Part shown: positions 2 to 26,667 of the stretch, in pieces
Layout of the letters: every line of letters starts with the position of its first letter
Numbering within the stretch: the first letter of the stretch is position 1
Source: Gammaproteobacteria bacterium
GTDB taxonomy: Bacteria; Pseudomonadota; Gammaproteobacteria; GCA-002705445; GCA-002716945
Length of the DNA stretch: 51,161 bases
NCBI GenBank assembly: GCA_030835925.1
Contig: JAURQW010000024.1
Span: 1-51,161 of the forward strand
Direction of reading: 5' to 3'
The notes under the pieces: generated by a model
Databases searched by the model: none
Seen by the model: the letters and a program-made list of their open reading frames with translations, nothing else
What the model was told of the DNA's origin: nothing
Translations under genes and position numbers: made by a program

Positions 2-232
2 ATCGAAGGTAAATGGGCTATTCATCCATCACAAATTGAATATGCTAATGATGTTTTTTCTCCTCCTGCAAAAGAAGTTGAAAAAGCACATAGAATCATT
101 GAGGAACTAAAAAAAGCTGCGGCTGAAGGTAAAGGCGCCGCTCAACTAGATGGGAGAATGATAGATGCAGCTTCAGAGAAAATGGCTGAAAATATCATAA
201 ATATAAATAACTTAATAGAATCAAAAAAATAA
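2..232 (+). CDS. mcl: L-malyl-CoA lyase (CitE/HpcH family), 3' part only, truncated by window start
   Basis: Not in the ORF track. Manual translation gives [21 protein letters not shown]...[22 protein letters not shown]...KK*, matching the Mcl C-terminus. Its TAA (230-232) overlaps the next ATG. Confidence 0.85.
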
Positions 233-1407
233 TGAATATACACGAATATCAAGCAAAAGAAATACTAACTAAATATGGAGTAGCTACACCAAAAGGAGGC
301 ATTGCATATAGTCCAGAGAATGCTAAAGACATGGCAACAGAATTAGGTGGTGACATGTGGGTAGTTAAAGCTCAGATCCATTCTGGCGCTAGAGGTAAAG
401 CTGGTGGAATTATAGTATGCAAGAGTCATCAAGAGGTGTCTGATGCTGCTAACACGTTATTAGGAAAAACTTTGGTCACTAATCAAACAGGCCCCGATGG
501 CTTAACAGTTTCAAGAATTTATGTTGAGGAAGCGTCTGATATTAAAAAAGAATATTATTTAGGACTAGTCTTTGACAGAAGCACTGAGAGTATTATGGTT
601 GTCGCCTCATCCGAAGGTGGTATGAGTATAGAAGAAATAGCGAAAGAGAAGCCAGAATCAATCATAAGAGCAAAAGTTGAGGCTGCTGTCGGTATGCAAA
701 GTTTTCAAGCAAGAGAAATAGCATTTGCACTAGGTTTAGAGGCTAAAGCAATATCTAGATGCGCAAAAGCAATCATGGGTTGCTATGAGGCATTCAGTCG
801 TTCTGATGCAACGATGGTAGAAATTAATCCTCTAATTCTAACTGGGGATGATCATATTCTTGCGCTGGATTGTAAAATGTCATTTGATGATAATGCGTTA
901 TACAGAATTCCTGACATTGCTGAACTGCGAGACAAGACACAAGAGGACTCAAAAGAGACATATGCTCATGATAGAGGATTAAATTACATCGCCCTAGATG
1001 GTGATATTGGAAATATTATTAATGGTGCTGGATTAGCTATGGCGTCTATGGATATGATTCAATTAGCAGGCGGACAACCAGCTAACTTTTTAGATGTTGG
1101 TGGTGGTGCTACGCCTGAGAAGTTTGTTAAGGCATTCAAACTCATATCTGGCGACCCAAAAGTCAAAGTTATATTAATTAATATCTTTGCTGGAATAAAT
1201 AGATGTGATTGGGTAGCTCAAGGTATTGTTGATGCCTTAGATCAAATAACAATAGAGCAACCTTTGGTTATAAGACTAGCTGGAACTAATGTTGATGAAG
1301 GCATGAAAATCCTAAAGGATAGCAAGATAGATTATATTGAGGCTTCAACACTTGAAGAAGCAGCTAACAAAGCTGTTGAGGCGTTAAAAGACTTGGAGAA
1401 GAAATAA
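232..1407 (+). CDS. mtkA: Malate--CoA ligase (malate thiokinase) beta subunit, SucC paralog
   Basis: SucC fold ([41 protein letters not shown]) with the Mtk-type [13 protein letters not shown] instead of SucC NIFGGIVRCD. Coupled to mcl. Confidence 0.85.
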
Positions 1408-19666: not shown

Positions 19667-20051
19667 ATTCTATCTGCATTACTCCATCTTTACCGCCTTC
19701 AAGGGCTTTTTTTGTTATTTCTTTTAGGTTGAGTGAGGGATAATTAAATATATTTAATAACATGGATAAATTTACTCCTGAAATTACATTGACATTTTTC
19801 TTCTGTGAGAATTTTTTAGCAATGTTACTTGGAGTAGAGCCAAACATATCTGTTAAAATTAACACACCATCACCACTATCTAAAACTTTCACATATTGTT
19901 GGGCTAAGTTGATCAAATCTGTAGGTTGATCATAATGATCAATTGATAATAACTCTGTTCTGTAAGGAACAGATCCATATGTAGACTTTGCTGCCAGTAA
20001 TAGTTGAGCGCCTATATCATTATGAGTTAAAAGCAGTAACCCTATATTCAT
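19641..20051 (-). CDS. PTS EIIA, mannose/fructose family
   Basis: LLTHNDIG, VLILTDMFGSTPSN, SGVNLSML. Confidence 0.88.
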   Translation of the reverse strand: MNIGLLLLTHNDIGAQLLLAAKSTYGSVPYRTELLSIDHYDQPTDLINLAQQYVKVLDSGDGVLILTDMFGSTPSNIAKKFSQKKNVNVISGVNLSMLLNIFNYPSLNLKEITKKALEGGKDGVMQIEYESKENSN

Positions 20052-20929
20052 TTTATATCTCTATGCTTCACTAGAATAGTATATTTCTTTCTTAACTCTT
20101 TGGATACATTTTCTGTAATATATACTGATCTATGCTGTCCTCCAGTGCATCCTATAGATATAGTTAGGTAGTTACGGTCACTTTTAAGAAATTTTGGGAT
20201 CCATTTGTTTAAGAATTTCACAATATTAGTTATCAATTCTAGTGATGCAGGGTCTTTTTTGATAAATGACTTTACCTGATTGTCTTTGCCAGACAGAGCT
20301 CTCAAACTTTTGTCCCAAAATGGGTTTGCAAGACATCTCACATCAAATACAAAATCGCTGTCATTAGGAATATTATTCTTATATCCAAAAGATTGAAGTT
20401 GAATGAGCATATCTTCTTTTTTTTGCGAATGCGAGAATCTCATATTTATTTGTCTTTTTAGATCTAGTGGTAGCAGATCATCGGTATCTATGATTAGGTT
20501 AGAATTCTCTTTTAACACTTGCATAATTTCCATCTCTTTAGAAATTGCTTCTTTAAGACTGATTTTATTTTTCGCGAGAGGATGGAGTCGTCTTGTTGCA
20601 TTAAACCTTGATAATAGTATCTTGATTGAGGAATGTAAAAAAATTGTATTTGTTTTAATATTTAAATCAGCTATTTTGTTGTATAAATTATCAACAGACT
20701 TTTTGAAACTCTTGTCTAATTTGATAGATCTTATATCGATACTTATAGCAACTTTATGATAAGACTTTTCTGTTGGATCATTCATTCTTTCAAGAATAGT
20801 TATAATCATTTTTGGAGATAAATTGTCAATACAAAAATATCCTTGATCTTCAAGAGCATGAAGAGCTATTGTTTTGCCTGATCCAGATAAACCAGTAATG
20901 ATTATTAGTTTAGATTGAGGCCTGTTCAT
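20048..20929 (-). CDS. rapZ: RNase adapter RapZ
   Basis: TGLSGSGKT, CIDNL, TRRLHPL, FDVRCLANP, IGCTGGQHRSV, C-terminal HRD. Confidence 0.95.
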   Translation of the reverse strand: MNRPQSKLIIITGLSGSGKTIALHALEDQGYFCIDNLSPKMIITILERMNDPTEKSYHKVAISIDIRSIKLDKSFKKSVDNLYNKIADLNIKTNTIFLHSSIKILLSRFNATRRLHPLAKNKISLKEAISKEMEIMQVLKENSNLIIDTDDLLPLDLKRQINMRFSHSQKKEDMLIQLQSFGYKNNIPNDSDFVFDVRCLANPFWDKSLRALSGKDNQVKSFIKKDPASLELITNIVKFLNKWIPKFLKSDRNYLTISIGCTGGQHRSVYITENVSKELRKKYTILVKHRDIK

Positions 20930-20942
20930 AAATTTATTTTAA

Positions 20943-21392
20943 TTAGTGACTATTAATAATCATCATAACATCGCTTGCAGTATTTGCTGTGCGTATTTTT
21001 TCTCGTAATACTTGATTATCTAATAGAGATGCTATATTCGATAACAACTCTACATGCATTTTATTATTATCATTTGGAACAAATAACGATATTATAATAT
21101 CAACTTTATTGCCATCTATTGAATTGAAGTCTATAGCTTCCGTTAATTTCAATATTATAATCTTGGCATTTTGGATACCCTCAATCCTAGCATGGGGTAT
21201 TGCAATGCCATTTCCAAATGCCGTTGTACCTAACTTTTCTCTCTCATATAACTTTTGAAATATCTCGTCTTTATTTGTTGATGTTAGTTCAGCCATTTTA
21301 TTACTTATAACTTCTAGGGTGTTTTTTTGACTCTTTGAATCACAATCCATTATTATAGACTCTTCAGTTAAAAAATTTGTTATTTCGCTCAT
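20943..21392 (-). CDS. ptsN: PTS EIIA-Ntr
   Basis: REKLGTTAFGNGIAIPHAR. Directly downstream of rpoN. Confidence 0.9.
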   Translation of the reverse strand: MSEITNFLTEESIIMDCDSKSQKNTLEVISNKMAELTSTNKDEIFQKLYEREKLGTTAFGNGIAIPHARIEGIQNAKIIILKLTEAIDFNSIDGNKVDIIISLFVPNDNNKMHVELLSNIASLLDNQVLREKIRTANTASDVMMIINSH

Positions 21393-21394
21393 GT

Positions 21395-22744
21395 TTATTT
21401 TATCTTCCTGTTTTTTGATGTTGGTATTAATAATGTTTCTCTATACTTTGCTACTGTACGTCTTGCAACTTTAATTCCATTTTCATTAAAGTTTTTTGAT
21501 ATATCTGAGTCACTCAAAGGCTTATTTTTATCCTCATTTGCAATAATTTTTGTTATCATTGATTTGATTGCTGTTGAGGATATCATTTTTCCATGATCTG
21601 TACTAATTTCTGATGAAAAAAAGTATTTCATTTCATAAACACCTCTATGTGTTTGAACATATTTATTATTTGTACATCTAGAAACTGTTGATTCATGCAT
21701 ATTGATTTCTACTGCTATGTCTTTTAACGATAATGGCTTCATTGCAATTTCACCTTGATTAAGAAAATCTTTCTGTTTATGAAATATTGCTCTTGCCACC
21801 TTAAGGATAGTGATATTTCTATTATTTAGTGCTTTTAAAAAGAAATTTGCATCTTGCAAATTATTTTTTACATATTCTTGATCAGATTTACTCTTAATTT
21901 TTTCCATCAATTCTTTGTATGCTTTATTGATTCTTATTTTAGGGTTTATTGAGGGATTTAATTCTACCACCCATTTAGAATCTCTTTTCACTATAATAAT
22001 ATCTGGTGTTATGTGTTCATGATGCAATATATCAGAAATAATATTTCCTGGTCTTGGATTAAGTGATTTTATGATATCTTGAGCATTATTCTCTCTCTCA
22101 AATTCTGAAATAAAAGCATCAAAATTTAGCATGGTCGGTTTAATATCATCTTCTAGTTTTTCAATCATATGTTTAGCAGAATCGAAGTTTTTGTGATCTT
22201 GATGATAATATTCAAGTTGTATTAATAGGCAGTCTTTTAACGAGGTCGCGCCAACACCTATTGGGTCAAGATGTTGAATTTTATGAAGAACCGCAAATAT
22301 CTCTTGAAAGGTAGTTTCTAAATTTCGTTTCAACAGTATAAATAGATCTTCAATAGTTTCTGTCAAGAACCCATCATCATTGATATAATCTATAATATTA
22401 TATGCAATGAACTGATCTTGTTGTGACATAGATGATAAATTTATTTGCCACATTAAATATTCCTGAAGCGATTGATGTGATGCAGGAAGTTGTTCATAGG
22501 CATCTTGAGCTACATCTCCAGTAGAAGTAGGGTAACTTAAAGACAATATTGGGCCTTCAGATGAGACCTCAACATGCTCAGATGAATTTTCATTCTCAAG
22601 AAATGGATTTTCAAGGATCTTATCTTCTATTTCTTTTTGTAAATCAATTGAATTTAGCTGTAACAATTTTATCGCAAGTTGAATTTGTTGCGTCATTGCT
22701 AATTTATTATTAATTGATAAGCTTTGCTTTGTCTTAAGACTCAT
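21395..22744 (-). CDS. rpoN: RNA polymerase sigma-54 factor
   Basis: Q/L-rich region I, ENPFLE, HESTVSR helix-turn-helix, RpoN box ARRTVAKYRE. Confidence 0.96.
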   Translation of the reverse strand: MSLKTKQSLSINNKLAMTQQIQLAIKLLQLNSIDLQKEIEDKILENPFLENENSSEHVEVSSEGPILSLSYPTSTGDVAQDAYEQLPASHQSLQEYLMWQINLSSMSQQDQFIAYNIIDYINDDGFLTETIEDLFILLKRNLETTFQEIFAVLHKIQHLDPIGVGATSLKDCLLIQLEYYHQDHKNFDSAKHMIEKLEDDIKPTMLNFDAFISEFERENNAQDIIKSLNPRPGNIISDILHHEHITPDIIIVKRDSKWVVELNPSINPKIRINKAYKELMEKIKSKSDQEYVKNNLQDANFFLKALNNRNITILKVARAIFHKQKDFLNQGEIAMKPLSLKDIAVEINMHESTVSRCTNNKYVQTHRGVYEMKYFFSSEISTDHGKMISSTAIKSMITKIIANEDKNKPLSDSDISKNFNENGIKVARRTVAKYRETLLIPTSKNRKIK

Positions 22745-23463
22745 AATTTGAAGCTATCGCCCAAGTATACGCTTTGAACAATTTTATCTTTGACAATTTC
22801 AGATGGTTTCCCATGTGCTATGACTTTTCCATCACTAATGATATATGATTCATCGCATACTTTTAATGTCTCTCTAACATTATGATCTGTAATTAGCACG
22901 CCTATGTCTACATTTATTAAATCTTTTATGATCTTTTGTATTTCAATAATTGAAATTGGATCTATTCCAGCAAATGGCTCATCTAGTAGTAGGAACTTTG
23001 GCTCAATAGCTAAAGCCCTTGCTATTTCTACCCGCCTTCTTTCTCCTCCTGATAAGCTAGCTCCATTACTATCGAGTATATTTTCTATCTGCAATGTTGA
23101 TACTAGTGAATCTAGTTTTATTTGTCTTTGTTTTAAAGAGAGATGTTTCCTGGTTTCAAGGATTGCCATAATATTATCTCTAACATTTAAGTTTCTAAAT
23201 ATAGAAGGTTCTTGCGGCAAATAACTTATACCCAGGTTAGATCTCAAGTGCATTGGAAGGTTTGTAATATCAGTATCATTTATCTTAATTAGACCGCTAT
23301 TACATTTTATTAGACCCACGAGCATATAAAACGTTGTTGTCTTTCCAGCCCCATTTGGACCCAACAGACCAACGACCTTTTTAGCATGAAGATTTATGCT
23401 TACTTTATCAACAACTTTTTTGTCATTATATTTTTTAACAAGATCCGTACAGTTCAGGTGCAT
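22741..23463 (-). CDS. lptB: LPS export ABC ATPase
   Basis: GPNGAGKTTTF, YLPQEPSIF, LSGGERRRVEIAR, DEPFAGIDP, TDHNVRETL. Confidence 0.96.
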   Translation of the reverse strand: MHLNCTDLVKKYNDKKVVDKVSINLHAKKVVGLLGPNGAGKTTTFYMLVGLIKCNSGLIKINDTDITNLPMHLRSNLGISYLPQEPSIFRNLNVRDNIMAILETRKHLSLKQRQIKLDSLVSTLQIENILDSNGASLSGGERRRVEIARALAIEPKFLLLDEPFAGIDPISIIEIQKIIKDLINVDIGVLITDHNVRETLKVCDESYIISDGKVIAHGKPSEIVKDKIVQSVYLGDSFKL

Positions 23464-24203
23464 TATTTAACCTTTTTAGTTTTTAAGATAGTCTTAACTC
23501 TATTTTGTATTTGTATCTTATCATTTTGGCCTTCTTTTTTAAGCAAAACCCATGTTTTTTTATTAAGATCATACAGCATCGTTTCGCCCTCTAATTCTTC
23601 AGCACGATCATCAGTATTTGATATCCTCTTTGCATTAGAGAGTATTCTAATTTTCCCCGTCTTCATATTCGCTATTACTCCATTACCAGAGGTTTTAGAA
23701 TTCGGAGTAGTTATTGTTGCAAATTCGCTTGTTTCTATAATTTCTTGATTAGGGTATATGATAGCTTTTGACGTTATTATATTAACTTCATTGACTTTAT
23801 TGTTATCATATTTATTAAATATTACATTATCTTTTAAGTATATTGTTTTAAAAAGAGAGTCAGGATCAAGCGCATGGTCTGCTTGGATTATCCAAAAAGA
23901 TTTTTCAGATGATCTTATATTCATAAATGGCATTATGACCTCTGATCTTAAACTATTTGGAAACTTTTCAAGCTTATCTCCAGAAAGTGTCCATGCTAAT
24001 TGTCCATTAACATCTGTTTCAGACATTTCAAAATCATTTAAGAAATGATTAGAAACACTAGAGTCTTTATTAAGCGAATTATAATTTAATGCTTCTGATA
24101 AAATATTATTAATCAACAAAAAGAACGATAACACTATTATAGTTATTAGAATAGTTTTCCTAGAAAATTTTAAAAGGAAATTATTTATTAGATTTTTTAT
24201 CAT
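23463..24203 (-). CDS. lptC: LptC with a C-terminal LptA-like extension
   Basis: One N-terminal TM helix and an LptC beta-jellyroll pattern (NGQLAWTLSGDKL, WIIQADHA, IYLKDNV, GNGVIANMKTGKIRIL), plus about 55 extra residues. Lies between kdsC and lptB. ATG at 24203 preferred. Confidence 0.8.
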   Translation of the reverse strand: MIKNLINNFLLKFSRKTILITIIVLSFFLLINNILSEALNYNSLNKDSSVSNHFLNDFEMSETDVNGQLAWTLSGDKLEKFPNSLRSEVIMPFMNIRSSEKSFWIIQADHALDPDSLFKTIYLKDNVIFNKYDNNKVNEVNIITSKAIIYPNQEIIETSEFATITTPNSKTSGNGVIANMKTGKIRILSNAKRISNTDDRAEELEGETMLYDLNKKTWVLLKKEGQNDKIQIQNRVKTILKTKKVK

Positions 24204-24729
24204 TTTTTGCGAGTACAATCAAATCACAAACATCTCTAACAGCACCAAAACCACCATATCTTGGTGTAATCCAATCTGAGTAATCAGTCAATTTATTATA
24301 GTTTGCATTAGGCACTGTAATTGATAATCCAGCCTTTTCCATTAATTCAATATCCACTATATCATCTCCAACAAAGCAGACTTGATCTAGATTATACTTC
24401 TTTGAAAATCTTTCCTTAAAATCTCCTAATTTATCCCTTGAACCTTGTATAACTTCTGTAAACTTAAGATCTTTAGCTCTGTATTCTACTGCTTTTGAAT
24501 ATCTGCCACTTATTATTGCTAATTCAACATCTAGGTTTCTAACTAACATCAGACCATGGCCATCTTGCGCAAAAAACCTTTTGGATTCAGCGCCATTTTC
24601 ATCTAGTATAATGCCACCATCAGTTAATACCCCGTCTACATCTAGTACAAGTAATTGAATATTTTTAGCTTTTTCAATTATTTTTTGATCAATAGAGTTC
24701 ATTTGTTCATAATATTTAGTATAGTTCAT
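24181..24729 (-). CDS. kdsC: KDO 8-phosphate phosphatase
   Basis: HAD motif LDVDGVLTDG, ISGR, VGDDIVD, GGFGAVRDVCD. Confidence 0.93.
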   Translation of the reverse strand: MNYTKYYEQMNSIDQKIIEKAKNIQLLVLDVDGVLTDGGIILDENGAESKRFFAQDGHGLMLVRNLDVELAIISGRYSKAVEYRAKDLKFTEVIQGSRDKLGDFKERFSKKYNLDQVCFVGDDIVDIELMEKAGLSITVPNANYNKLTDYSDWITPRYGGFGAVRDVCDLIVLAKNDKKSNK

Positions 24730-25697
24730 TATTCAATTCCATTTCTAAGAAGTTCATTAAGAGTTAGCAAGCCAACTACAGTTTTATCATGATTAATAAC
24801 TACTAAAGAAGTTATTTCATTTTTTTCCATTATACTTAATGCTTCAACTGCCATGGTATCTATTGACACCACCAAGGGTTTCTTGGTCATTACTTTATAT
24901 AAGCTTAATGCTGAAATATTTTTATGCTTTTTTAGTACTCTTCTTAGATCGCCATCAGTAAATATTCCTTTGAGTTGTTTTGAAGAATTCAATATTATGA
25001 CAATACCATAATTATATCTCGTAACTACATCAATGGCTTTCATCAAAGGTAGATCCTTATAAACATAAGGTAATTTCTTAGTAAACATTATATCTTCCGA
25101 CTTACGAAGGAGTCTTTTACCTAAACTTCCTTGAGGATGTGATTTCGCAAAGTCTTTAGACGTGAAACCTCTACACTCTAAAAGAGTAATTGCGAGTGCA
25201 TCTGACATCGCTATAGCAGATATAACGCTAGATGTAGGAGCTAAATCTAGAGGACATGCCTCAGATTTGACACCAGAATCTATTATCACATTCGTGTTTT
25301 TAGAAAGCGTCGATCTTTTATTTCCCGTTATGGTAATTAGCGGAATTTTTAGAATCTTGAATAAGGGCAACAAAAGCAACAGTTCTTTTGTTTCACCAGA
25401 ATTTGAGTAAAATATAACAACATCAGATTTCTCAACCAAACCCATATCACCATGCAAAGCTTCTGCCGCATGTAGAAATATCGAAGGACTGCCTGTGCTT
25501 GAAAAAGTTGCAGATGCTTTTTTAGCAACATGGCCAGATTTTCCGAGACCAATTGTAATTATTTTACCTTTACAGGCCAACAAAAGATCACATGCTTTTT
25601 CAAAGTTGCGATCAATCTTTTTTGTTAGTTGATTTAATGCCTGAGCCTCTTTTTTAATTGTTTTTTTGGCAATAGATGCTTTGTCGATATTTCTCAT
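24729..25697 (-). CDS. kdsD: Arabinose 5-phosphate isomerase (KpsF/GutQ)
   Basis: GLGKSGHVA, EALHGDMG, EACPLDLAPTSS, HPQGSLG and two CBS domains. Confidence 0.93.
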   Translation of the reverse strand: MRNIDKASIAKKTIKKEAQALNQLTKKIDRNFEKACDLLLACKGKIITIGLGKSGHVAKKASATFSSTGSPSIFLHAAEALHGDMGLVEKSDVVIFYSNSGETKELLLLLPLFKILKIPLITITGNKRSTLSKNTNVIIDSGVKSEACPLDLAPTSSVISAIAMSDALAITLLECRGFTSKDFAKSHPQGSLGKRLLRKSEDIMFTKKLPYVYKDLPLMKAIDVVTRYNYGIVIILNSSKQLKGIFTDGDLRRVLKKHKNISALSLYKVMTKKPLVVSIDTMAVEALSIMEKNEITSLVVINHDKTVVGLLTLNELLRNGIE

Positions 25698-26667
25698 AAA
25701 CTTATGCCATACAAACTAATTTGATACATTGTGAATAATCCAAGTAATAGTGTACATAAAATCTTACTAAATAAATAATTATGGTTTTTTATTATAATAT
25801 AAAAGCACACCATTGTAATTAGGATCATAATTATATCTCGTAATAAATCTGTAATATATAGTGGTTTAGGGAGCTCTAATGCAAATAAACCAGCTAGACT
25901 TATCACTATAGCAAAATTAAATATATTAGATCCAAGGATATTACCAATTATAAAATCAACATTTTTCTTTCTAGCAGACTCAATGCTTGATGCTAATTCA
26001 GGAATACTTGAACCTATCGCAGTAATTGAAAGCCCTATTACATAATTTGATATGCCATAATGTTTAGCAACTATAATACTACTATTTAATAATAACTCAG
26101 TCCCAACCAAAAGAGTCAGTAATCCAAATATCAGGTTTGCGAATACCCTCGCATTACTTTTTAAGTCTTCTGAGTTTACTTTCTTATAATTTTTTGAATC
26201 TTGATAGACGAATTTCTTATATAAAAATACAAGGATAAAAAAAGAAATTATTAAAAGTATAGAATCATTAACTGAGATCGTGCCATCTTTAAGTATTAAA
26301 AATACTAGTATAGAAATTATTATCAGAATAAACATGAAACCATATGTTTCTCGATCAATAAATCTGTTAACAGGTAATATATCTTTTTTAAGAAACAAAT
26401 AACTAATAGCAAATACAAACGCGATATTTGAATATTTGATCCTAATGCATTACCAATAGCTATATTAGATTCACCATCGAGACTGGATATGATTGAGATG
26501 AATATTTCAGGAGAAGATGTAGCTAAGCCAATAAAAATAAAACTAGATAAAAAATAAGAGATATTATATTTTTTTGAGATATTCTCGGTAGATGCAACAA
26601 GCACATTCGCTCCATAGCTGACCAATGCGAGACCTAAGACAAATAATAAAAAAACTGTGATTGTCAT
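25694..26667 (-). pseudogene. yrbG: Calcium/sodium antiporter YrbG split by a 1-bp frameshift (pseudogene or sequence error)
   Basis: The 5' ORF has alpha-1 motifs ATSSPE and GNALGSNI. The 3' ORF has alpha-2 motifs GSSIPEL and GNILGSNIFN. Adding one base near 26431 restores GSNISNIAFVFAISYLFLKKD and joins the two. Confidence 0.85.

Follow-up and report, generated by a model that had tools for sequence, protein, structure and literature searches.

One whole order of tiny marine Gammaproteobacteria probably moves LPS across the periplasm with a machine of six proteins and not with the textbook seven, which form a bridge regarded as conserved across Gammaproteobacteria; the number falls to six because free LptA is absent. 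The explanation we favor, with a probability of roughly 0.6, is that LptC of this order has been lengthened by a module derived from LptA, that there is no free LptA and that the lengthened LptC docks on LptD in a six-protein machine. This is a known Lpt system in a variant form which is new. The window, i.e. the whole stretch of 51,161 nucleotides analyzed, carries an lptC-like gene directly between kdsC and lptB, and the encoded protein is a complete LptC followed by a conserved C-terminal tail with predicted extra strands, while no LptA was detectable in the genomes of the order that were searched.

On the minus strand the genes follow each other as kdsD, kdsC, lptC-like, lptB and rpoN (Table 1), and this position in a kdsD-kdsC-lptC-(lptA)-lptB cluster is as expected of a member of the LptC family. 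The assignment of lptB also fits its relatives, as length and position agree with those of their lptB. The ATG at 24203, residue 6 of the TTG-started frame, is a plausible start of the lptC-like gene because most database homologues, among the matches listed, measure 245-247 aa. The preliminary description of this DNA had read the order as kdsC-lptC-lptB, with the lptC stop overlapping the lptB ATG and no room left for lptA, which is borne out by the TAATG at the junction, and the fusion, when checked in related genomes as it had proposed, turned out to be common to all 30 loci. These loci come from other assemblies and six genera; in every one kdsC, the tail-bearing lptC and lptB are contiguous, with kdsC as the upstream neighbor, a spacing of -8 to +7 nt between lptC and lptB and no separate lptA in the locus.

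Table 1. Position of genes around lptC in the window and of the segments of the lptC-like product.
Feature	Position	Strand	Remarks
rpoN	21395..22744	-	beyond lptB in the cluster
lptB, ABC ATPase	22741..23463	-	Pfam ABC_tran (E 1.7e-32) and BCA_ABC_TP_C
TAATG, overlap of lptC stop and lptB start	23461..23465	-	one base common to both
lptC-like gene	23463..24218	-	251 codons from TTG; 246 from ATG at 24203
Conserved C-terminal tail, residues 198-251 (54)	23466..23627	-	resembles LptA C-terminus
Basic amphipathic C-terminal segment, residues 232-246	23481..23525	-	predicted helix; sequence aligns with last strand of LptA
Three extra beta-strands, residues 206-211, 213-217 and 222-226	23541..23603	-	AlphaFold2; continue the jellyroll
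Complete LptC beta-jellyroll, residues 24-197	23628..24149	-	Pfam LptC E 3.7e-24, TIGR04409 E 1.9e-27
Putative N-terminal membrane anchor, residues 20-45	24084..24161	-	AlphaFold2 helix; hydrophobic stretch KTILITIIVLSFFLL
kdsC-like HAD phosphatase	24181..24729	-	Pfam Hydrolase_3 and HAD; overlaps lptC start
kdsD	24729..25697	-	beyond kdsC in the cluster

The first part of the protein is an entire LptC. Both Pfam LptC and TIGR04409 span residues 23/24-197 and end at ...ILSNAK, where the LptC fold had been expected to stop before extra residues follow, and 54 residues do remain beyond it. PF06835 scored 85.7 bits (cut-off 21) and was covered through model positions 2-171 of 175; TIGR04409 scored 95.9 bits (cut-off 38). 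The solved folds nearest to the AlphaFold2 model of the protein (pLDDT 83.5) are LptC structures, 6mit_C with Z 19.0, rmsd 2.4 and 148 aligned residues (model residues 56-209) and 3my2 with Z 16.3, rmsd 2.5 and 124 aligned residues. The modelled N-terminal helix, with pLDDT of about 85-88 across residues 21-40, would serve as a membrane anchor. Members of the genus g5 have a short N-terminus which resembles a signal peptide. LptC of 11 relatives from the class stops with a C-terminus of the ...VRG.YE type, whereas LptC of the order runs on past that point.

What follows this point is, judging by its conservation, a functional part of the protein, because the tail is kept at full length, down to its very end, in 35 of the order's 37 genomes, has four residues invariant among 29 sequences (G211, Y216, W223 and T243) and is conserved as well as the core, with a mean column identity of 54% compared to 51% for the whole protein. 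A further 167 homologues are metagenome-derived, and most among the best 120 of these 167 are 240-266 aa long. In AlphaFold2 models of the protein and of a distant member (pLDDT 88.3) the tail does not make a separate domain but prolongs the LPS-carrying jellyroll with the same three strands, predicted in the former with pLDDT of 82-92 at residues 201-220 and 81 at residues 221-230. It is in accordance with this that structures of LptA and of the LptD N-domain align with the model out to residues 228-234, while solved LptC aligns only to about residue 209. The segment NRVKTIL had been taken for the last strand of LptA, which the two models do not support, as both predict a helix there, the second of them confidently, with pLDDT of about 75-55 for residues 232-246 here and about 93-87 for residues 205-219 of the distant member.

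The likeness of the tail to LptA is low in score, and it could be attributed either to descent from LptA, as we favor, or to another origin. Residues 180-251 match TIGR03002 at E 0.015 (15.2 bits) through model positions 90-140 of 142, and the whole protein reaches 12.5 bits, so that both stay far below the family cut-off of 71.7; PF03968 gave no match to the protein. The TIGR03002 match recurs in 13 of 29 tails of the family (best E 4.7e-4), while the LptC model was matched by none and any other NCBIfam model by never more than one of the 29. With hhalign, against about 129 LptA sequences, tail positions 9-52 were aligned to LptA positions 129-165 of 177 with P 3.5e-4; the likeness runs colinearly over the ~37 residues at the end of LptA and includes the G-x4-Y and RV..I motifs, RVKTIL of the tail being paired with RV..vI of LptA and the invariant Y216 with the sole invariant LptA residue of that region. 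The real tail scored 25.2, the reversed tail 13.6 and 80 column shuffles 14.9 at most; against a set of 12 LptA sequences P was only 0.008. A broad LptA HMM placed our ORF first of 5728 six-frame ORFs at E 0.0043 (the next at 1.9), with the tail as the second matched stretch, and the HMM of the 12 LptA sequences also placed it first in its own genome, but at E 0.14, while HMMs made from only the C-termini of these 12 did not rank the tail first there. LptA relatives were gathered with one AT-rich LptA query, which brought 4 proteins, and with an alignment query, which brought 693.

In none of the searches did a direct match of the tail to LptA reach significance. The tail profile found no LptA among 177,635 PDB sequences, where its best matches (E 0.098-1.7) were to a hyaluronate lyase, a ligase and a kelch-like repeat protein of designed origin. 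Among 1.84 billion representatives it gave 27 matches at E<=0.001, with no LptA and no free tail-bearing protein; all either belonged to the lineage itself, as members or fragments, or were repeat proteins that carry a YD..tW motif. TFIIE_beta, the Pfam match to the tail alone (E 0.03), was taken as chance. The resemblance to the LptA C-terminus, which the preliminary description had seen by eye, is nevertheless reproducible, specific and colinear, if weak, and separate profile checks of the two parts, which it had suggested, identify the core as LptC and the tail as weakly LptA-like, not LptC- or LptD_N-like.

An unlikely, though not negligible, explanation is that the tail does lengthen LptC for docking on LptD but consists of duplicated LptC strands or of read-through sequence, and that it looks like LptA through homology or through constraint on the ends of Lpt jellyrolls. 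Such a route by self-duplication exists. In G170, a genome of another family with no LptA detected, LptC is lengthened because its last ~64 residues are repeated in tandem (44% identity, E 4e-19). The direct similarity of the tail to LptA, as mentioned, falls below family thresholds, and nothing like the terminal helix is described for the last strand of LptA in the excerpted text of PMC5575297. On the other side, hhalign fits the tail better to LptA than to LptC (P 0.063), to the LptC core of the order itself (P 0.017) or to LptD_N (P 0.12), and the tail occupies the place which the 3' end of lptA has in relatives, abutting lptB. The route through an LptA remnant also has a precedent, with the same breakpoint, in G242. 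Residues 7-188 of its LptC match the whole LptC of a congener (E 1e-66), residues 188-226 match the last 43 residues of the congener's LptA (40% identity, E 5e-5), and no LptA was found elsewhere in this genome. To judge by these alignments, a whole LptC fused to the end of LptA does arise naturally. Both G242 and G170 are, like the order, LptA-negative Gammaproteobacteria in which LptC is C-terminally longer by 40-85 jellyroll residues; they differ from it in being independent events in unrelated families, each known from one genome, and the extension in G170 copies the end of LptC and not of LptA.

It was also claimed that lptA is missing not only beside lptC but from the genome, and no LptA was detectable by profile searches in the genome itself (83% complete, a draft of 27 contigs) or in the order's 37 genomes. 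None of these 37, 17 of which have a completeness of 90% or more with contamination of 5% or less, reached the TIGR03002 cut-off, and the weak TIGR03002 matches in the order are to LptD and the LptC tail only. We searched five genomes (four of them 98-100% complete) with TIGR03002, PF03968, an alignment of 12 LptA sequences and the order's own LptD_N alignment, and found no further jellyroll protein beyond LptC and LptD. The rest of the machine (LptF, LptG, LptE and LptD, in addition to LptB) is encoded in the genome. In relatives from other families, LptA is over the cut-off in 15 of 16 and is found at E 5.4e-11 in the sixteenth. The 12 outgroup loci that were read are all lptC-lptA, with lptB next in 10 (L013 ends at lptA and L011 is not clear). 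In the class, 367 of 401 sampled genomes have LptA (E<=1e-6). Elsewhere in the class, lptC adjoins lptB in at least 10 genomes that are LptA-negative, and eight of these have LptC of normal length. The tail is therefore not obviously required where LptA is not recognizable, because the LptA-negative genomes mostly have a normal-length LptC which lacks it. In those genomes either LptA is dispensable even with no tail or a divergent LptA escapes the models, and the latter would apply to the order too.

Evidence for contact between LptC and LptD comes from structure prediction. It is known that Lpt jellyrolls join edge to edge, in a brick-like way, and that the C-terminal sheet of LptA is the contact with the LptD N-domain, as stated in the excerpted text of PMC5575297. 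The predicted complex of the periplasmic part of LptC with its own LptD N-domain scored 0.44, with 0.02 for the best control, and at least 91% of contacts are common to the three runs, with partner pLDDT of at least 79. This is a weak pass: among solved complexes 58 of 80 attain the mark, and among mismatched pairs two of 110, but it is attained at 0.60 or less by just seven of the 80 solved complexes and by both passing mismatches, counts which hold roughly here as the run used its own alignments. The pass may also reflect memory of the predictor, because similar Lpt jellyroll complexes are solved, and being weak, with no interface reported, it does not establish that the contact runs through the tail. 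LptD itself has a BamE domain fused to it here.

These results leave a smaller share of probability, somewhat below that of a self-duplicated tail, for a bridge protein which persists, encoded elsewhere, as a strongly diverged LptA or as an unrelated factor; the tail would then have another role, such as stabilizing LptC, binding the BamE-like domain of LptD or, by way of its basic helix, attaching to the outer membrane or cell wall. Profile sensitivity in this AT-rich lineage is indeed low, LptD_N itself scoring only 17-21 bits; several other families of the class have neither detectable LptA nor a tail, so an undetected substitute could be common; and the prediction of the LptC-LptD complex is weak. 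Against this stand the four kinds of profile, which found nothing beyond LptC and LptD, the 37 genomes with no match over the cut-off, the ability of TIGR03002 to find LptA in other reduced genomes (a 0.9-Mb genome of the class retains it at E 5.8e-11) and the tail extending the LPS-carrying jellyroll instead of making a domain of its own. That the fusion is an artefact of assembly or gene calling, or a decaying pseudogene, could be suspected in a 27-contig draft but is ruled out by the same open frame and layout in 30 of 30 independent loci and by the 167 homologues, with invariant residues in the tail.

Returning to descent from LptA, the tail would most likely represent the 3' end of lptA. 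A deletion in the ancestor of the order would have taken the lptC stop together with roughly the first 125 lptA codons and left the end of lptA, with its tight lptB junction, in frame on lptC, so that the whole LptC jellyroll would be extended by a module of about 50 residues made up of three strands with a basic helix after them. The preliminary description had proposed an LptC-LptA chimera made by deletion between equivalent strands. The chimera is supported by the conserved LptA-like tail, the lack of detectable LptA and the precedent in G242, but a join between equivalent strands is ruled out, as the LptC domain is complete and the tail adds three strands, which gives a jellyroll longer than either parent. 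In the working machine LptB2FG would load LPS onto LptC, whose extended C-terminal edge, formed by the strands with which LptA docks on LptD, would pair directly with the N-terminal jellyroll of LptD, and LptC would pass LPS straight to LptDE over a bridge that is presumably shorter. With somewhat less than even confidence we extend this to a wider proposal: that an entire order of Gammaproteobacteria, marine, free-living and with ~1-Mb genomes, exports LPS without LptA, through an LptC with the docking end of LptA and an LptD fused to the only BamE domain of the cell, that lengthening of LptC upon loss of LptA arose at least three times (in the order, by fusion in G242 and by self-duplication in G170), and that recognizable LptA has been lost widely in small-genome Gammaproteobacteria.

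Antibiotics, thanatin among them, target LptA and the contacts that it makes with LptC and LptD. If a natural, order-wide machine without LptA is real, it would reveal the small number of jellyroll units that suffices to bridge a periplasm, it would mean that the indispensable part of LptA is the end which docks on LptD, and the bridge would evolve through cutting and joining of jellyroll strands. It also offers a ready-made design, a whole LptC with the last ~40 residues of LptA, testable in E. coli. Searches of open-access papers and preprints brought up neither such a fusion nor LptA-less Gammaproteobacteria nor a BamE-LptD fusion. One of the closest known cases, from the excerpted texts of PMC9972910 and PMC4986956, is E. 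coli without LptC, rescued by suppressor mutations in LptF, in which a six-protein bridge also spans the envelope and carries LPS with one jellyroll protein fewer; there LptC is missing, LptA is kept and the suppressor is of laboratory origin, while in the order the missing part is LptA, LptC is kept in lengthened form and the arrangement occurs in nature and is fixed order-wide. LptAm, which is E. coli LptA with residues 160-185 deleted, indicates, again within the excerpted text of PMC5575297, that Lpt jellyroll ends are modular and that an altered C-terminal end of LptA is partly tolerated, but as an engineered truncation of free LptA it is the converse of the order, where the C-terminal end of LptA alone would be retained.

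Compared with known LptA (E. coli YhbN type; TIGR03002, PF03968), the likeness is confined to the colinear ~37 C-terminal residues. Known LptA is free and soluble with a signal peptide, whereas here the LptA-like part forms the last 54 residues of a 251-residue LptC; nothing in LptC of the order corresponds to the first ~125 residues of LptA, and the last segment is predicted to be helical. With known LptC (E. coli YrbK type; PF06835, TIGR04409) the protein shares the whole jellyroll, the kdsC/lptB neighborhood and, as predicted from its hydrophobic helix, probably the N-terminal anchor, and differs in having 54 more conserved residues, predicted as three strands and a helix. In database annotation the proteins of the order are plain LptC.

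The best reading of our results is that the lptC-like gene of the window encodes a natural LptC::LptA' fusion, found throughout the order to which the window genome belongs, as part of a six-protein Lpt machine which has no free LptA and in which LptC likely contacts LptD; no description of such an LptC-LptA' protein was found in the literature searched. The minus strand carries, in this order, kdsD, kdsC, lptC-like, lptB, rpoN, ptsN and rapZ, and the stop codon of lptC shares one base with the start codon of lptB (TAATG). The product matches Pfam LptC (E 3.7e-24, model positions 2-171 of 175) and TIGR04409 of NCBIfam (E 1.9e-27), which span residues 23/24-197, and past the LptC domain there is a tail of 54 residues (198-251, window 23466-23627). 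Gene order, TAATG and profile extents all agree with the preliminary description of the gene and its tail. Upstream of kdsD, a yrbG-like Na+/Ca2+ exchanger (25697-26667, minus strand) is divided by a frameshift into ORFs 26326-26667 and 25697-26398, which overlap, lie in different frames and have one Na_Ca_ex repeat apiece; the frameshift is either genuine or due to a sequencing error. In 20943-22744 (minus strand) ptsN and then rapZ come directly after rpoN, with no hpf-like ORF in between; in E. coli that place is occupied by hpf.

Genes of the cluster in the window (nucleotide positions) and parts of the LptD protein encoded elsewhere in the same genome (residues)
Feature	Position	Strand	Remark
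kdsD	24729-25697	-	
kdsC	24181-24729	-	
lptC-like ORF	23463-24218	-	251 codons from TTG, 246 from ATG at 24203
lptB	22741-23463	-	
rpoN	21395-22744	-	
ptsN	20943-21392	-	
rapZ	20048-20929	-	
LptD N-terminus			signal-like
LptD BamE domain	61-126		E 4.6e-18; linker after it
LptD_N jellyroll	212-335		weak match
LptD barrel	484-822		

The claim that the genome has no lptA gene held when the LptA profiles PF03968 and TIGR03002 were searched against it, both of which match LptD only, and it holds for the order as well, as TIGR03002 exceeded its cut-off in none of the 37 genomes, 17 of which have a completeness of 90% or more and a contamination of 5% or less. Weak TIGR03002 matches in the order fall on the LptD N-domain and, repeatedly, on the LptC-like tail (model positions ~89-140), and profiles of the order's LptD N-domain and of 12 LptA sequences detected nothing further in the window's own genome and in four others of 98-100% completeness. 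The other Lpt components, LptF, LptG, LptE, LptD and LptB, are present in the own genome. Among 16 relatives from other families LptA is over the TIGR03002 cut-off in 15 and at E 5.4e-11 in the 16th; lptC and lptA are adjacent in all 12 of the relatives' loci that were read, with lptB directly after in 10 (L013 stops at lptA and L011 has a long open frame downstream of it). In an even sampling of the class, restricted to genomes at least 90% complete, a TIGR03002 match at E<=1e-6 is present in 367 of 401, a count which includes four unpublished genomes (G307, G153, G297 and G075) and a genome of 0.9 Mb, and is missing in 34. Of these 34 we looked at 17 more closely: LptC is present in 12, and 10 of the 12 have lptB at most 220 nt downstream of lptC with no lptA between (loci L097, L099, L100 and L102-L108). 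In eight of those ten, LptC is of ordinary length (183-213 aa) and lacks the tail, which weakens the claim that the tail enables the loss of LptA. For many small-genome Gammaproteobacteria this could be attributed either to a recognisable LptA being dispensable or to a divergent substitute that escapes the profiles. A hidden bridge protein of the latter kind could also exist in the order of the window, and the tail-less genomes with lptC-lptB keep that explanation alive.

The fusion of LptC with its tail is real and old. The window, with a GC content of ~30-35%, is contig C22 of a draft genome that has 918,761 bases in 27 contigs and a completeness of 83%, and the order is represented in the genome collection by one family of 37 species-level genomes (~0.6-1.2 Mb, six genera). 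The full-length protein including the tail is present in 35 of the 37, the other two genomes being 81% and 87% complete; one of the hits is a fragment at a contig end. In all 30 loci read, kdsC, lptC with its tail and lptB are contiguous, and the gap from lptC stop to lptB start ranges from -8 to +7 nt. The alignment of 29 sequences, down to 29% identity, has G211, Y216, W223 and T243 invariant in the tail, where mean column identity is 54% compared with 51% for the whole protein. Metagenomes supplied 167 further homologues, the 120 listed being mostly 240-266 aa long; homologues are labelled in the databases as LptC of uncultured Gammaproteobacteria, many from marine metagenomes. Taken together, the loci, genomes, tail conservation and metagenome homologues exclude both an assembly artefact and a pseudogene. 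Members from genus g5 (L037-L044) have 218-222 aa and a short hydrophobic, signal peptide-like N-terminus, shorter than the anchor seen in the window; its cleavage, if it occurs, would make the fusion soluble in this genus.

The likeness of the tail to the LptA C-terminus, first noticed by eye, was upheld by some methods and missed by others. TIGR03002 aligns to residues 180-251 with E 0.015 (model positions 90-140 of 142), and when 29 tails were scanned singly against 18,950 NCBIfam models, 13 matched TIGR03002 (best E 4.7e-4), every other family being matched by at most one tail. With hhalign, the tail alignment and ~129 LptA sequences gave P 3.5e-4 and a probability of 37%, pairing tail positions 9-52 end to end with LptA 129-165 of 177, while the end of the LptC core, an accepted LptA homologue, gave P 9.4e-5 in the same test. 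The real tail reached 25.2, the reversed tail 13.6 and 80 column shuffles at most 14.9; P was 0.063 for the tail with LptC, 0.12 with LptD_N and 0.017 with the order's own core. The invariant G211 and Y216 align with the G-x4-Y motif of LptA, whose Y is the sole invariant LptA column in the aligned region. A broad LptA HMM ranked the lptC-like ORF top among 5728 six-frame ORFs of the genome (E 0.0043, runner-up 1.9), with a second matched stretch at residues 205-249. On the other side, a HMMER profile of the tail did not find LptA among PDB sequences or, at E<=0.001, among 1.84 billion representatives, and small LptA C-terminal HMMs failed to pick out the tail. Descent of the tail from LptA is probable (about 0.7), though not proven on sequence.

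AlphaFold2 with the family alignment (pLDDT 83.5) predicts a helix at 20-45 and a jellyroll at 59-226, of which the tail forms the last three strands (206-211, 213-217 and 222-226), followed by a C-terminal helix (232-246) along which confidence falls. For a distant member (31-35% identical) a second model, with pLDDT 88.3, likewise shows the three tail strands and predicts the C-terminal helix with confidence. Solved LptC (6mit_C) matches model residues 56-209 (Z 19.0, rmsd 2.4, 148 aligned), and alignments with LptD N-domains and truncated LptA reach residues 228-234. The match to solved LptC and the strands of the tail argue that in the predicted fold LptC is complete and lengthened by three strands, which contradicts the proposal that a deletion had joined equivalent strands of the two proteins. 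According to a passage in PMC5575297, residues 160-185 of E. coli LptA contain its last C-terminal strand, and LptA touches the LptD N-domain via its C-terminal sheet. The segment paired by sequence with that strand is helical in the monomer prediction, and this helix may be either real or turn into a strand on docking.

A complex predicted from residues 50-251 of the lptC-like protein and the alignment of the LptD N-domain scored 0.44 (runs 0.40, 0.50 and 0.44), compared with 0.02 for the best of three controls, and is graded as weak support. Of 80 solved complexes 58 attained the benchmark mark, as did 2 of 110 mismatched pairs, and at scores of at most 0.60 this was true of only 7 of the 80 and of both passing mismatches; these counts are only approximate here because self-made alignments were used. 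At least 91% of contacts agree between runs, with partner pLDDT of at least 79. The pass may reflect likeness, because Lpt jellyroll complexes are already solved, and the output is a score without an interface, in which the tail is not singled out as a contact. We infer that the lengthened LptC would most likely contact LptD directly. The order's LptD (L060:1522-4254, plus strand, contig C5 of the own genome) keeps its N-terminal part in 34 of the 37 genomes. This ~900-residue ORF holds the sole BamE match of the own genome and of 22 out of 24 further genomes of the family that were searched, and the domain is placed just ahead of the edge of the jellyroll that would receive LptA. In 15 other families, a small ORF (114-388 aa) encodes BamE. 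No paper on a BamE-LptD fusion was found in the literature searched.

Among class genomes without a TIGR03002 match, G242, from another family, has an LptC of 232 residues (L102:1354-2049, minus strand). Its residues 7-188 correspond to the entire LptC of the congener G056, final residue included (50% identity, E 1e-66), and 188-226 to the last 43 residues (123-165) of G056 LptA (40% identity, E 5e-5 as a single-comparison value); no further LptA match was found in G242 at E<=10. Like the order's protein, it joins a whole LptC to the last ~40 residues of LptA, and the LptA breakpoint is about the same as in the hhalign mapping. By sequence comparison this is an LptC::LptA' fusion independent of the order's, known from one draft genome in a family of only two. 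In G170, of another family of the class, LptC has 299 residues (L106:1222-2118, minus strand), the extension duplicating its final ~64 residues in tandem (44% identity, E 4e-19); lptB follows 18 nt downstream and no LptA match was detected. Because of the order's fusion, G242 and G170, lengthening of LptC in LptA-negative genomes amounts to at least three events by two routes. The ~200-nt spacer between the G242 fusion and lptB carries a long inverted repeat at both ends (arms of ~20 nt); a small mobile element is one possible explanation, a terminator another.
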